From NCBI GenBank assembly GCA_016927275.1, contig JAFGMW010000095.1, positions 9,247-73,246 on the forward strand: a DNA stretch of 64,000 nt, in the 5' to 3' direction. This stretch comes from Pseudomonadota bacterium. GTDB lineage: Bacteria; UBA10199; 2-02-FULL-44-16; JAAZCA01. Positions within the stretch are counted from its first letter, which is position 1; each line of letters opens with the position of its first letter. Shown here piece by piece: positions 50,687 through 53,708 of this stretch. The notes beneath the pieces are model-generated. The model worked only from the letters and a program-made list of their open reading frames with translations, ran no database searches and was not told the origin of the DNA. The translations under genes and the position numbers were made by a program.

Positions 50687-50746
50687 GCGATGGTGAGGCG
50701 ATTAACTACTTCTCCACCACATCGAATTGATCGAGGCAACCCGCGG
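50687..50746. repeat. left copy of ~50-bp imperfect direct repeat (duplicate of the rng 3' end), overlapping the last codons (QFDVVEK*) of the AAA-ATPase gene
   Basis: gcgatggtgaggcgattaactacttctccaccacatcgaattgatc vs right copy gcgatgatgaggcgattttttacttctccatcacatcgaactgctc (~85% identity). Confidence 0.6.
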
Positions 50747-52067
50747 AATAGAGGGGAATGGAAAGCAATCCATATTTCAACGAAACCCCATCTGGCAATG
50801 TCACGTCATGATGTTCAAGATTCAGATTTCCGCCATAAATTCGCACGCCGAAATCAGCGCCGCTGCGGTAAAGGTATTGATGCAGCGATTTGAGGGCCCC
50901 GTGGCTCCCAGCCTTCACCTCCACCGGGATGAGCCGTTCGCCCCTCTGCAGGAGAAAATCCAGCTGGGAGGTCGTATCCTTCTCTTCCCGAATCCAGAAA
51001 TACGGCGTCACGCGATGATGCGCGTCCATCGCAAGCAGCTCCTGCCCCACAAATGCCTCGGCCAATCCGCCGCCGAACGCCGGATCCATCAACCGCTTCC
51101 GGACCTGATCTTCGGTGAGATTCAAGACATGCGTGCACAGCCCAATGTCGAGGTGCAGCGCCTTCGGCGCTGCCTTGGGCTTCTTCACAAGAGGCGCCAG
51201 AGTCCGCGTCGTGGGCCAGACGCGTTCGACGAGCATAGCCTCATGGAGAATGGAAAATGCATTTGAAATATCTTTAGATCGCGTCTGATCTTCGGAGAGA
51301 CGCGAATATTTGATGCGCACGCCGATCTGAAACGGGACACGATCCCAGACGAGTTTGAGATGCTCCACCTCGGAGCGCTTCGAGTACTTGACGAAGTCGT
51401 CATGAAAGGAAGAATGCAGCGCATCGTGGACGACCCGGACATCTTTGATGCTCTTCGTCTCCACATAGCGACCGACTGCCTCAGGCATACCGCCCACGGT
51501 CATATAGAGCGCCACCAGCCCCAGGAGTTTTTCATGCACAGGCTGAGGAATAGTGCGGCCGATGCGCTGGCCGCGCATCTCCTTCAGGATAAGGTCCTCG
51601 CCCAGCGCTTCAAGGAATTCCTCGAACGTCACAGGATACAGATACCGGAATTCGACCCTTCCCACCGGGAACGACCACCCTTCATCCTTCATGCGCACTT
51701 CGAGCAGCGAACCGGCTGCAATGACGTGGAGACCCGGCATCTCTTCGTAAAAATATCTTAGGAGTTTAATCGCAGATACGGAGTTCTGGATCTCATCGAT
51801 GAAAAGCAGAGTCTCGCCCGGAACGATGCGTTGATTGGTCACTCCTTCGATGCTCCGGACGATATCGCGGATATCGGAAACCTCGGCAAAGATGCGGCGA
51901 AGGGCGTCCTTTTCCAGATTCAACTCGATAAAACTGTTGAACTGCCCGGCAAATTGGTGGACCAGCGTCGTCTTCCCGGTCTGACGTGCACCGCGGATGA
52001 CCAAGGGCTTTCGGTGGGCCCCATTTTTCCATTCATTTAGTGATGCCTCCAGATGGCGTCTAAACAT
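50706..52067 (-). CDS. AAA+ ATPase with C-terminal DUF4143 domain
   Basis: Walker A GARQTGKT, Walker B LLFIDEIQ; DUF4143-like C-terminal half; GC lower than flanking chromosome. Confidence 0.75.
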   Translation of the reverse strand: MFRRHLEASLNEWKNGAHRKPLVIRGARQTGKTTLVHQFAGQFNSFIELNLEKDALRRIFAEVSDIRDIVRSIEGVTNQRIVPGETLLFIDEIQNSVSAIKLLRYFYEEMPGLHVIAAGSLLEVRMKDEGWSFPVGRVEFRYLYPVTFEEFLEALGEDLILKEMRGQRIGRTIPQPVHEKLLGLVALYMTVGGMPEAVGRYVETKSIKDVRVVHDALHSSFHDDFVKYSKRSEVEHLKLVWDRVPFQIGVRIKYSRLSEDQTRSKDISNAFSILHEAMLVERVWPTTRTLAPLVKKPKAAPKALHLDIGLCTHVLNLTEDQVRKRLMDPAFGGGLAEAFVGQELLAMDAHHRVTPYFWIREEKDTTSQLDFLLQRGERLIPVEVKAGSHGALKSLHQYLYRSGADFGVRIYGGNLNLEHHDVTLPDGVSLKYGLLSIPLYSAGCLDQFDVVEK

Positions 52068-52365
52068 GACAAAATACTACCAAAAGATGAGGTTCTTTAC
52101 AACGTAATTATTCCTATAGATGAGGTTCTTTTCACTTCTCCATCCTATAAACCGCTGCAAACAGCACTTTTCGCCGAAAACTGCCAACAGGATGACATAT
52201 TTCCAGTGTGGGGCGATTGTTTCCTGACGTCCCCGTGCGCAACATCATTCCAGCCGACATCATGGGCATGGTCGCGGCTGCAAGATGCACTCACGTCTTT
52301 TCGTTTGCTTCTCATGACGATTTGACATATATCAATTCTACCATTTTTTCCTCAAGGAGGTTTTT

Positions 52366-52920
52366 ATGAAAAGGATAGTAGTTTATTTTTCGATAGTTGG
52401 TCTGTTGGTGCTCGCAGCAAAACCTGTGCGAGCCGAATCTGGAGAAGAACCCGGCAAATATTATGTTTATGTTCAAGCAGTGAACAACGGGGCCCCATTC
52501 GGCTTGCAAGAGTGTGATATGAAGGCATTTTACTGCGAAGCGGCCAACCCAGACAACTGCTGGAGTGCAAAGACTTACACAAGCGATCAGGGGGGCGCGC
52601 GTTTTTGGTTCCAGAAAGTTTTTCAGGACAGAGAAATGGGATACAATATTTATATTACCGCTACCCCTAAGATGAGTTATCTTCTCTCCAGCAAGACCTC
52701 CCCGGATTTCCTTGTTGATGCAGATCATTCCCCATACTCGTCATGGGAATCGAGATTTATATTTTATTTTGGCAAACCGGTAATAAAAAGGCTGACGACT
52801 AAAGACATAGAGATGGTTGGCACCCCGCAAGACATGAAACAAATGGTTAAAGGAGAACCGCATAGCGGCGAAGCGCATATCGAACGGTCATTGCGCAAAG
52901 TCGTGCCTTTACAAAAATGA
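52366..52920 (+). CDS. hypothetical secreted protein (low-GC gene)
   Basis: Signal peptide MKRIVVYFSIVGLLVLAAKPVRA; AT-rich codon usage; AGGAGG RBS. Confidence 0.5.
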   Translation: MKRIVVYFSIVGLLVLAAKPVRAESGEEPGKYYVYVQAVNNGAPFGLQECDMKAFYCEAANPDNCWSAKTYTSDQGGARFWFQKVFQDREMGYNIYITATPKMSYLLSSKTSPDFLVDADHSPYSSWESRFIFYFGKPVIKRLTTKDIEMVGTPQDMKQMVKGEPHSGEAHIERSLRKVVPLQK

Positions 52921-53054
52921 TTTTGGATAATCCTGAGTTGTTTTATTGATGCCCAAACAAATGCCCCGTATTTAGGGGGCATTTGTCTTTAATCCGGCAC
53001 GATCCGGAATCGGCTGCTACAAGCACCCTTTCAAGGTTCGGCAAAGGGATTAAG

Positions 53055-53520
53055 TTATCTCATCAAGCCCCATAACATTTTGCTGATGGCCTCAAGGCGC
53101 GATTTGAGGGCGGCTGCCTCAACTGGCGTGAGCAGCCTGAAGGCGCGCATGAGGTCGATGCAAGCGCCTACTTCGGCCGAGCTGGCGCGGGCGATCGTAA
53201 AGAAGCGGAAAACACAGAGCTCAGAGAGCAGATTCAGATTGAGAAAACAGATTAAGAAAACGGCGCTCAGAACTCGCCCTACCATCGCCTTACCATCGCA
53301 CTATCATCGTTTGATCATCGAACTATCATCGTATCTGTTTTTTTACCGGGCAACGGCAAACGTGCATACAGCCGCGAACGCCGCCGTTTCTTTCAAATCG
53401 CGCTCGGGTCGCTCGCCGAAACCAGCGCAGCACTCGATCTTGCGCTTGCCTTCGGCCTCATCACCTCTGCTGCGCAGGACTCGCTCAAATCGCGGCTCCA
53501 ACTCGCATTCACGATGATTG
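53055..53520 (-). pseudogene. degraded four-helix-bundle protein gene (23S rRNA intervening-sequence protein family), frameshifted
   Basis: One frame gives C-terminal ..TIARASSAEVGACIDL...LEAISKMLWGLMR; another upstream frame gives ..LRSRGDEAEGKRKIECCAGFGERPERDLKETAAF resembling the family's N-terminal half; no single intact ORF. Confidence 0.35.
53281..53335. repeat. five tandem 11-bp iteron-like repeats (ACCATCGCCTT/ACCATCGCACT/ATCATCGTTTG/ATCATCGAACT/ATCATCGTATC)
   Basis: Direct inspection; located inside the islet next to the degraded four-helix-bundle gene. Confidence 0.6.
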
Positions 53521-53565
53521 AGGCCCTCCCATGAGCCTCAATCTTCTCTCTCAGCTCGGCTTTCG

Positions 53566-53598
53566 GTGTTTCGGTTCTCGGTGTCTCGGTTCTCGTCT
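53566..53598. repeat. tandem ~15-bp repeats (GTGTYTCGGTTCTCG)
   Basis: tttcggtgtttcggttctcggtgtctcggttctcg. Confidence 0.55.
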
Positions 53599-53657
53599 TT
53601 TCGAGGTACTCGGTGGAAGGGGAAGGCGATGAAACTGCGATGGTGCTGCGATGATAC

Positions 53658-53708
53658 GGCGATGATGAGGCGATTTTTTACTTCTCCATCACATCGAACT
53701 GCTCCACA
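53658..53708. repeat. right copy of ~50-bp direct repeat, covering the last 10 codons (..QFDVMEK*) and 3' flank of rng
   Basis: See left copy 50687-50746. Confidence 0.6.

Follow-up and report, generated by a model that had tools for sequence, protein, structure and literature searches.

Homology-facilitated illegitimate recombination (HFIR) has been proposed as the source of orphaned 3' ends in the orphan immunity arrays of type VI secretion systems (T6SS) and in the orphan 3' regions of Rhs loci (PMC5361080). The insertion sequences IS1634 and IS1549 are known to leave target duplications that vary from 8 to 514 bp, for which no mechanism was proposed (PMC2266710). DUF4143 is a PD-(D/E)XK family of unknown function (PMC3424549), and PDC-S01, a single-gene ATPase-PD-(D/E)XK candidate, is the fourth commonest defence candidate in prokaryotes, with about 39,000 hits reported and validation pending (PMC12988326). 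Here, we analyzed a 64-kb stretch of DNA (the window; 64,000 nt of contig JAFGMW010000095.1 from a Pseudomonadota bacterium) in which an AT-rich islet with a PDC-S01-type ATPase gene lies behind rng, the gene for ribonuclease G (RNase G). The islet is real inserted DNA that reflects at least two successive insertions, each of which left a spare rng tail. We hold the structural description of the locus with high confidence. For its origin we favor serial acquisition behind rng, independent of an integrase and accompanied by displacement of 3' ends through HFIR, an account to which we give roughly an even chance. An earlier note on this DNA had read the islet as a single element inserted site-specifically; that att-site reading is too simple, and its mechanism is probably wrong.

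Copies of the rng tail and the rng-rplU junction

All genes of main interest lie on the minus strand, which is called the sense strand below. In the sense direction, the order is rng, a first rng tail (Ta), a 1.5-kb segment, a second tail (Tb), the ATPase cassette, a third tail (Tc), an array of 11-bp repeats with a HEAT-repeat gene, a 71-aa open reading frame (ORF) and rplU. The rng gene (53678-55234, minus) was identified by its matches to NF008689 (ribonuclease G, E 7.5e-170) and RNase_E_G (E 1.4e-106) and contains S1 and thioredoxin-like domains. Its functional 3' end is Ta (53678-53704, minus), the last 24 coding nucleotides of which are identical to those of rng in the closest relative, L002. 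The ATPase gene, with AAA_14 and DUF4143 domains (50706-52067, minus), ends on Tc, which makes up its last eight codons and stop (50706-50732). As the earlier note had described, an imperfect direct repeat of 46 nt at 85% identity (50687-50732 and 53659-53704) duplicates the C-terminus of rng; RNase G ends in ..VEQFDVMEK and the ATPase in ..LDQFDVVEK. Upon gapped extension, Ta with its flanking array A1 (53637-53704) and Tc with array A3 (50666-50732) were collinear over 68 nt at 76% identity (E 3e-8 / 4e-9). The 20-mer TTCGATGTGRTGGAGAAGTA from the tail, with up to three mismatches allowed, occurred at two sites in the 64 kb, both within the repeat, against none expected from 100 shuffles.

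The two copies reported earlier exist, but a third, decayed copy is also present. Tb (~52133-52168, minus, located by local alignment) is an orphan rng 3' end that terminates in TGA and abuts the cassette, with the sequence ..GCAGCGGTTTATAGGATGGAGAAGTGA directly upstream of the ATPase promoter. Its local alignment with the rng tail scored 14, a value reached by 6 of 2000 shuffles. The counterpart of Tb in L087, a contig of a relative that encodes the ATPase P0001 and has the cassette at this same locus, has the sequence GAGCAGTTATATGCGGTAGAGAGGTAA and scored 18-19, which none of 2000 shuffles reached; it resembles both that genome's own ATPase tail and the rng tail of the window. Tb is followed by the cassette, and Tc by an 11-bp array of the same kind as that after Ta. 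The 3 kb is consequently not one element, as had been assumed, since the three tails mark off two units, namely 52166-53677 and the 1.45-kb ATPase cassette.

The tail motif is evidently native to rng. The rng proteins of L002 and L003 end in EQFDVMEKEK and EQFDVAEK, respectively, and remoter rng proteins in EQ[FY]E[IV]... Among the 120 best ATPase homologues, the ending (E/D)QFDV(V/M)EK was found only in the query, P0001 (91%) and P0002 (89%). In this set, the family consensus is ..LLSxPxYLxFRLxE[LF], followed by 3-20 unrelated residues; P0003, an 88% identical ATPase, ends in RLEEFAHSNTSE.. / RLEEFAHSNTSERRSESSD. Because the family consensus lacks the motif, the family ending is variable and the motif is native to rng, we conclude that the ATPase acquired its tail from rng. 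A chance or convergent C-terminal motif was rejected, as the nucleotide identity runs ~20-40 nt past the stop and the ATPase consensus has no such motif. A conserved C-terminal motif unrelated to insertion, the case that the earlier note had set against itself, is likewise ruled out by the endings of the ATPase family.

A scan with the rng protein, with one genome per species, gave 80 loci. In L003, the second-closest relative (rng 77% identical), a mere 184 nt separate rng from rplU, and the gap between these genes is 54-225 nt in many Desulfuromonadales-like genomes. This adjacency indicates that the order radical-SAM gene, rng, rplU is ancestral and, in turn, that the entire 6.7 kb separating rng from rplU in the window is secondary, and the HEAT gene with it. 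The expected insertion of DNA behind rng is thus supported by an empty site in relatives. That site is rng-rplU and not rng followed directly by the HEAT gene, as had been anticipated; the HEAT gene is absent from L002, L003 and L087. In the relative closest to this genome, L002 (83%), rng and rplU are separated by a different filling of 7.7 kb, with genes for FGE-sulfatase, CstA and pirin. The fillings of several Geobacter-like genomes measure 1.1-3.8 kb, and other lineages carry 0.4-7.7 kb of unrelated cargo between the two genes. These differing fillings mark the rng-rplU junction as a variable hotspot.

The base composition of the islet is also distinct. The GC content is 0.42-0.55 over 50.6-53.6 kb, compared with 0.621 for the window, 0.649 for rng and 0.667 for the radical-SAM gene; by part, it is 0.495 in the segment 52166-53677, 0.54 in the ATPase cassette and 0.42 in the spacer 50568-50705. 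The GC content at third codon positions (GC3) is 0.47 in a secreted-type ORFan, 0.66 in the ATPase gene and 0.93 in rng. Windowed GC and GC3 both confirm that the islet is richer in AT than the chromosome.

The same features fit an alternative in which a tyrosine or serine recombinase acted in trans, with the rng 3' end as attB, the repeats as attL and attR, and the three tails as tandem integrations of the kind seen at tRNA genes. Under this alternative, direct repeats would copy the 3' end of a gene that stays intact, and the three serial tails do resemble tandem islands. A weak inverted repeat over the stop (GATGGAG..CCTCATC in Ta and GGTGGAG..CCTCACC in Tc), with one apparently compensatory change, belongs on the same side. 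We nevertheless regard this alternative as unlikely. No recombinase family of Pfam (integrase, transposase or resolvase) was found among ~45 scanned ORFs of the 64-kb window, those of the islet included, in agreement with the absence of an integrase from the islet noted before. Additionally, no extra rng tail was found in the filled rng-rplU gaps of 10 other lineages. A tRNA or tmRNA gene as the insertion target was rejected, the sole tRNA gene in the window being tRNA-His at 36.46 kb.

The ATPase cassette and the surroundings of its homologues

To judge from their boundaries, the ATPase gene and the promoter that it carries form a discrete unit of ~1.45 kb, a cassette that lies between Tb and Tc. 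Cassettes 86-90% identical are present at unrelated loci in other genomes, and the limits of nucleotide homology, in window coordinates, are 52140-50689 for L082, 52132-50744 for L085 and 52194-50706 for L087. The L082 cassette adjoins TelA and a 720-aa protein and the L085 cassette lies between TPR genes, with no rng near either. In L087, the cassette stands at the rng locus of a relative and is followed directly by the 71-aa ORF and rplU, without the HEAT gene. Between the window and L087, the ATPase genes are 89.6% identical and the rplU genes 79.8%; this greater likeness of the ATPase indicates that the cassette moved between the lineages after their divergence.

The 5' end of the cassette (52068-52132, minus) contains two operator-like repeats, AAAGAACCTCATCT, at 52118-52131 and 52085-52098. 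A -35-like TTGTAA and a -10-like TAGTAT enclose the second of these, and the ATG follows 6 nt past the -10 hexamer. Two copies of AAAGAACCT(C/A)(A/T)TCT, 32-33 nt apart, are kept in 12 of 13 loci from several phyla, with L093 having one repeat only. TTGTAA and a TAnAAT box flank the second copy, and the start codon usually comes 6-8 nt further on, with a longer spacer in L091 and L098. This layout suggests a leaderless, autoregulated transcript. The two-operator promoter was observed in the window, L082, L085, L087, L089-L092, L095, L096, L098, L143, L151 and L153. Upstream of remoter DUF4143 genes (L108, L109, L111 and L129), there are two tandem repeats of differing sequence, which suggests family-wide autoregulation with co-evolving operators.

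At the right joint, the native 3' end of the ATPase gene, as present in L085 (TTGGAGGAGTTCG; ..CGT TTG GAG GAG TTC G/CT CAC..), and its counterpart in rng (GTGGAGCAGTTCG; ..CAT GTG GAG CAG TTC G/AT GTG ATG GAG AAG TAA) share 11 of 13 nt, and the ATPase gene of the window turns to rng sequence exactly after this microhomology. The coincidence of the joint with the native ATPase 3' end is a further point against a recombinase in trans. The left joint lies in an A-run, where the rng stop and A-run (GTAAAAAA) meet the cassette (AAAAGAACC). The rng reading frame is not "reconstituted", as had been proposed; rather, the ATPase ORF runs into the displaced rng tail. Neither integron attC sites (R''/L''...L'/R', GTTRRRY) nor Xer/dif-like sites were recognized at the boundaries by eye, without a formal search.

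The ATPase matched the PADLOC model PDLC04788 of PDC-S01 over its full length (residues 1-447, E 4.9e-145) and the Pfam families PF13173 (AAA_14, E 5.5e-24) and PF13635 (DUF4143, E 1.3e-23), each exceeding its gathering score. The Walker A, Walker B and D..ExK motifs are intact, and the nuclease motif reads LDFLL..IPVEVKAG. In an alignment of 25 sequences, the ATPase and nuclease residues G26, R28, Q29, G31, K32, T33, D91, E92, D370 and K385 occupy invariant columns, and the column of E383 is nearly so. As a candidate defence protein, the intact ATPase is probably autoregulated and NLR/ORC-like, with a nuclease as its effector domain. The AlphaFold2 model (pLDDT 90.5) has its last helix at residues 439-447, and its confidence falls at the final residues, so that a swapped extreme C-terminus would plausibly be tolerated. 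The suggested link to defence databases held for the ATPase, as a PDC-S01 candidate, but not for the secreted ORF, which had no PADLOC match. No other defence gene was found beside the ATPase; its neighbors are the ORFan, four-helix-bundle fragments and the HEAT protein, and neither the ORFan nor the HEAT protein matched PADLOC.

We compared the surroundings of ATPase homologues (57-66% identity) for which these were obtainable; a metagenome scan with the ATPase gave five loci, and the sample is accordingly small. In L092, the 3' end of rnd (RNase D) recurs as a copy of 112 nt, 87.5% identical, that lies 3 nt past the ATPase stop; the intact rnd ends at operator 1, and the displaced copy ends in GAACCTATTCTTT, which is nearly identical to operator 1. 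In L098, the last 30 nt of pilC (..WDLIKVYQQ and stop) recur at 97% identity, in frame, as the ATPase tail. The pilC-tail copies of this locus (2598-5365) bracket two differing tandem DUF4143 ATPases between pilC (T2SSF) and a pilin gene, and the second ATPase carries the tail. The 99-nt repeat of L093/L094 consists of the 5' half of tRNA-Ser(CGA) and upstream DNA. The duplicated stretch in L090 measures ~330 nt and takes in an entire gene for a 66-aa peptide as well as the opening 17 codons of the gene that follows. This peptide gene, which encodes an NHLP/Frankia-peptide-like precursor, stands on both sides of the ATPase (5586-7775; also in L133-L142); the upstream copy is followed by 17 codons of a cNMP-binding gene, which stands intact after the downstream copy. 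A 90-nt repeat (91%) brackets the cassette and the 720-aa gene in L082, the L085 cassette lies between TPR paralogues of 61% identity, and a 20-nt repeat in L151 occurs exactly upstream of operator 1 and inside an extended ATPase tail (positional test, p ~0.008). The repeat in L089 was discounted, as its hairpin core occurs a third time in the locus and looks like a dispersed element of the repetitive extragenic palindromic (REP) or terminator-like type. No flanking repeat was found in L091, L095, L096, L143 or L153. The L095 cassette (3820-5500) lies between a biotin-carboxylase ORF (..LTVGNWGR and stop) and a separate biotinyl/lipoyl-domain ORF, and it may have split a carboxylase alpha-subunit gene.

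Across loci, the repeats measure 20, 30, ~35-46, 90, 99, 112 and ~330 nt, and their distance from the gene ranges from 0 to 650 nt on the upstream side and from -27 to +2200 nt on the downstream side. In a uniform comparison of the 1.2 kb upstream with the 0.9 kb downstream (E <= 1e-4), flanking repeats were detected in 6 of 14 ATPase contexts, or in 3 of 12 without the window lineage and without counting L085 and L089. Among the controls, such repeats flanked 0 of 51 neighboring genes at these loci and 9 of 332 genes at rng loci. The enrichment of flanking duplications around the ATPase is significant, although the sample is small.

These results bear on a recombinase in trans in two ways. 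The presence of an rng-like tail with the L082 cassette at a different locus is as expected of an element that bears attP. On the other side, each locus has its own, locally derived repeat (from rnd, pilC, tRNA-Ser or the peptide gene), of 20 to ~330 nt with varying end-points, which is unlike a recombinase-defined att site, and a shared att core was not seen among the cassette copies in other genomes. Of the site-specific insertion into a gene 3' end that had been proposed, the inserted DNA and the duplicated tail stand; the specificity is not supported, given the missing integrase, the locus-specific repeats and the joint at a microhomology.

The duplications also suggest a different possibility, in which the cassette mobilizes itself. 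The AAA+/PD-(D/E)XK product, probably bound to its operators, would nick or break the target at variable spacing, and host repair would insert the cassette with long, variable duplications. This would account for a discrete 1.45-kb unit with a conserved 5' end at unrelated loci and in unrelated phyla, for the enrichment of local duplications around it, and for a C-terminus that is hypervariable past RLxE[LF], as if the end of the element lay inside the ORF. The intact nuclease and ATPase motifs are in line with it, as is the displaced target copy of L092, which ends nearly as operator 1 does, and IS1634 and IS1549 offer a precedent for duplications of variable length. However, a nuclease by itself is unable to join DNA, and neither terminal inverted repeats nor fixed end-points were found. 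Five of the 14 contexts have no repeat, nor were flanking repeats found at distant homologues on viral contigs of IMG/VR (29-38% identity, and one marginal at 22%). Recent jumping was rejected, as the identical ATPases P0046 and P0066 keep one context across 24 and 16 contigs, respectively; identical proteins never occur in two contexts, which leaves no evidence of ongoing movement. As an explanation of this locus, self-mobilization has a small chance in our estimation. We consider it improbable that PDC-S01 genes in general are single-gene mobile cassettes, the insertion of which is promoted by their own operator-recognizing ATPase-nuclease. The same low probability applies to the specific form of this idea, with variable duplications of 20-330 nt or longer, insertion often at the 3' ends of housekeeping genes and a right end inside the ORF.

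Proposed order of events behind rng

In the account that we favor, serial displacement of 3' ends behind rng, we infer both the order of events and the recombination pathway. In each event, incoming DNA would be attached to an rng 3' end. Its left side would recombine homologously inside or upstream of rng, and its right side would be joined illegitimately at a microhomology, ~17 nt before the resident stop. Because this joint falls before the resident stop, the resident tail would not be replaced but pushed downstream as an orphan ("3'-end displacement"). The first event would place the ~1.45-kb cassette, with two operator repeats, promoter and PDC-S01 gene, directly after the rng stop. The ..TTG GAG GAG TTC G of the cassette would be joined to the GTG GAG CAG TTC G of rng, and the ATPase ORF would then end on the displaced DVVEK and stop of Tc, followed by the old rng flank (A3). 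In a later event, the 1.5-kb segment 52166-53677, with arrays, two four-helix-bundle fragments, the ORFan and a HEAT tail, would arrive; it would supply the new functional tail Ta with A1 and leave the earlier tail as the decaying orphan Tb. The locus has the geometry of HFIR, with a conserved anchor gene, the functional Ta and the stacked orphans Tb and Tc.

Several points weigh against this account. HFIR is rare compared with ordinary homologous replacement (PMC5361080). It requires the uptake of donor DNA (competence), and the host belongs to an uncultured lineage represented by metagenome-assembled genomes (MAGs). The donor must already carry the cassette behind rng, so that the primary insertion is left unexplained, and the examined homologues stand at a different locus in almost every genome. 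The enrichment of duplications relative to neighboring genes hints at a process specific to the cassette. In L082, an rng-like tail and ~17 nt of array are present at a locus without rng, which indicates that Tb, cassette and Tc are able to move together as well. The left limit of homology, at 52194, is common to the window and L087, which differ upstream of it; this pattern does not follow neatly from a history of two events. Finally, several ORFs of the window have no family match, notably at 57.9-63.9 kb, and a novel recombinase may be encoded elsewhere.

A tandem duplication of the rng tail, array and HEAT gene could instead have come first, with the cassette entering the second tail and the first HEAT copy decaying. 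The collinearity of Ta plus A1 with Tc plus A3 over 68 nt would follow directly. Additionally, an orphan copy of the HEAT-gene 3' end (52229-52289, minus; ..AATMPMMSAGMMLRTGT vs ..AAVPMMSAAAMLRTGT and stop) is present ~60 nt upstream of Tb, with 74% identity over 61 nt to 47407-47466 (E 3e-5), and the cassettes of L082 and L085 also lie between paralogous genes, of 61-62% identity. However, L087 has Tb, cassette and Tc directly beside the 71-aa ORF and rplU with no HEAT gene, the sequences after the two HEAT tails are unrelated, and a separate insertion of the cassette that duplicates the tail would still be required. We consider such a history to have little chance of being correct.

Other features of the window and comparison with known systems

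The segment 52166-53677 is a graveyard of fragments. Array A1 (53625-53674, minus; ATCGCCNNNNN x4.5; periods 11 and 22 in Tandem Repeats Finder) starts 3 nt past the rng stop. Array A2 (53274-53331, plus) is inverted relative to A1 and lies between two truncated four-helix-bundle fragments, and the degenerate array A3 (50660-50702, minus) follows Tc. The pattern ATCGC-N6-ATCGC-N6-ATCG gave six overlapping matches against 0.13 expected. The 11-bp repeats described earlier are thus real, but they form three arrays, one inverted and one degenerate. No such arrays were found in 80 other loci save L001, from the same organism. No replication or partition gene is present in the islet, and "iteron" is a descriptive label only. 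As RNA of rng read-through, A1 and A2 were predicted to form a long stem closing ~300 nt (minimum free energy -157.9 kcal/mol, z = -4.7); the paired arrays could be a structure of the 3' untranslated region or a unit resembling a miniature inverted-repeat transposable element, 3 nt after the rng stop. The second tandem repeat that had been reported is also present (53555-53595; 15-nt unit CTCGGTTCTCGGTGT x2.7).

The supposed single, frameshifted four-helix-bundle gene is actually two separate 3' fragments of 23S_rRNA_IVP genes. Both are 5'-truncated. One has the translation GNGKRAYSREPRRFFQIALGSLAE... (~53351-53533, plus; PF05635 positions 52-104 of 106, E 1.7e-7), and the other lies at 53055-53285 (minus; PF05635 positions 60-105, E 6.1e-6). 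The fragments are head-to-head and 67% identical over 118 nt, the plus-strand one being an inverted homologue of 53095-53208. The contig L001 (Logan SRR13394437, 7336 nt), assembled independently from the same organism, breaks at ~53430 in the region of the four-helix bundles and arrays, which is consistent with the repeated sequence there. The 184-aa ORFan (52366-52920, plus) has a hydrophobic, signal-like segment at its N-terminus and is followed by a 30-nt palindrome (52957-52986). It had no Pfam, PADLOC or NCBIfam match and, among 5.8e9 proteins, matched itself alone; its own record is hypothetical protein JXA24_06715 from a MAG named 'Proteobacteria bacterium'.

The HEAT-repeat protein (1054 aa; 47403-50567, minus; HEAT E 1e-9) is encoded by a gene with internal repeats of ~120 nt. 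In particular, the part at 49300-50320 contains ~7 tandem repeats of 120 nt (40 aa) with 62-67% identity. The protein showed no similarity to the 720-aa protein beside the L082 cassette. The 71-aa ORF (47143-47358, plus) is kept beside rplU in L002 and L087 as well, a conservation by which it marks the distal edge of the variable region. The rplU gene for L21 (46692-47003, minus), the ancestral downstream neighbor of rng, is followed by rpmA and obg. On the other side of rng lies the gene with B12/radical-SAM and DUF2344 domains (55231-57753, minus). Sub-threshold Rfam matches to MIR1883 on both strands mark a ~100-nt palindromic stretch inside this gene (55864-55960); no known RNA family was found in 46-56 kb, where the only matches were such sub-threshold palindromes. 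Long ORFs without a Pfam match occupy 57923-63936, a region with strong purine skew on the plus strand, and a 1112-aa minus-strand ORF there has an atypically low GC3 of 0.61. Another patch of low GC (0.47-0.53) at 34500-36300 contains a beta-lactamase-family hydrolase gene (34156-35364, plus) and a SAM methyltransferase gene (35517-36308, minus; GC3 0.57). This patch adjoins tRNA-His (36460-36535), the window's one tRNA gene, and may for that reason be a further islet.

Taken alone, the islet is an ordinary small, decayed accessory region. It offers a base-resolved case of integrase-free insertions stacking behind a core gene, in which orphan tails serve as a stratigraphic record and one orphan rng tail is recycled as the C-terminus of another protein. 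It also indicates that a very common, uncharacterized candidate defence gene travels as a compact, promoter-bearing and probably autoregulated cassette. In our small sample, this cassette is bracketed by target duplications far more often than its neighbors are. If this is true at scale, it bears on the spread of single-gene defence, and the enrichment of such genes in defence islands may partly reflect their own mobility. Self-mobility, if true, would amount to transposition-like mobility of a new class, one that operates without a recombinase of the DDE, HUH or Tyr/Ser type.

We compared the locus with the known systems that it resembles. Integron cassettes are likewise single-ORF units that occur in varied contexts and stack serially; here, the cassette has its own promoter, and neither an attC-like site at its boundaries nor intI was seen. 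Integrase islands at the 3' ends of tRNA, tmRNA or protein genes share the direct repeats of a 3' end, the intact target, the foreign composition and the empty site in relatives. In contrast, an integrase is missing here, the sequence and length of the repeat differ per locus, and a microhomology to the cargo gene marks the joint. IS1634 and IS1549 (PMC2266710) also have target duplications of widely varying length, but they are DDE transposons with terminal inverted repeats, whereas the sole ORF of the cassette is an ATPase and its ends are neither inverted nor fixed. The ATPase has the AAA_14 and DUF4143 architecture of PDC-S01 (COG1373), with conserved Walker and PD-(D/E)XK residues. The literature on that family (PMC12988326, PMC3424549) gives no account of gene movement; here, the gene forms a 1.45-kb cassette that has its own promoter, encodes a chimeric C-terminus and often lies between duplicated stretches of target DNA; in the window, no other defence gene adjoins it. 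The HFIR model of T6SS effector-immunity and Rhs loci (PMC5361080) has in common with this locus a conserved upstream anchor, new cargo placed beside it, older 3' pieces shifted as orphans, stacked events and no integrase. The orphans of those systems, tips of toxins and immunity genes, have a rationale in selection, whereas the anchor here is a housekeeping RNase and its orphans are tails of 27-60 nt, one of which has been co-opted as the end of another ORF.

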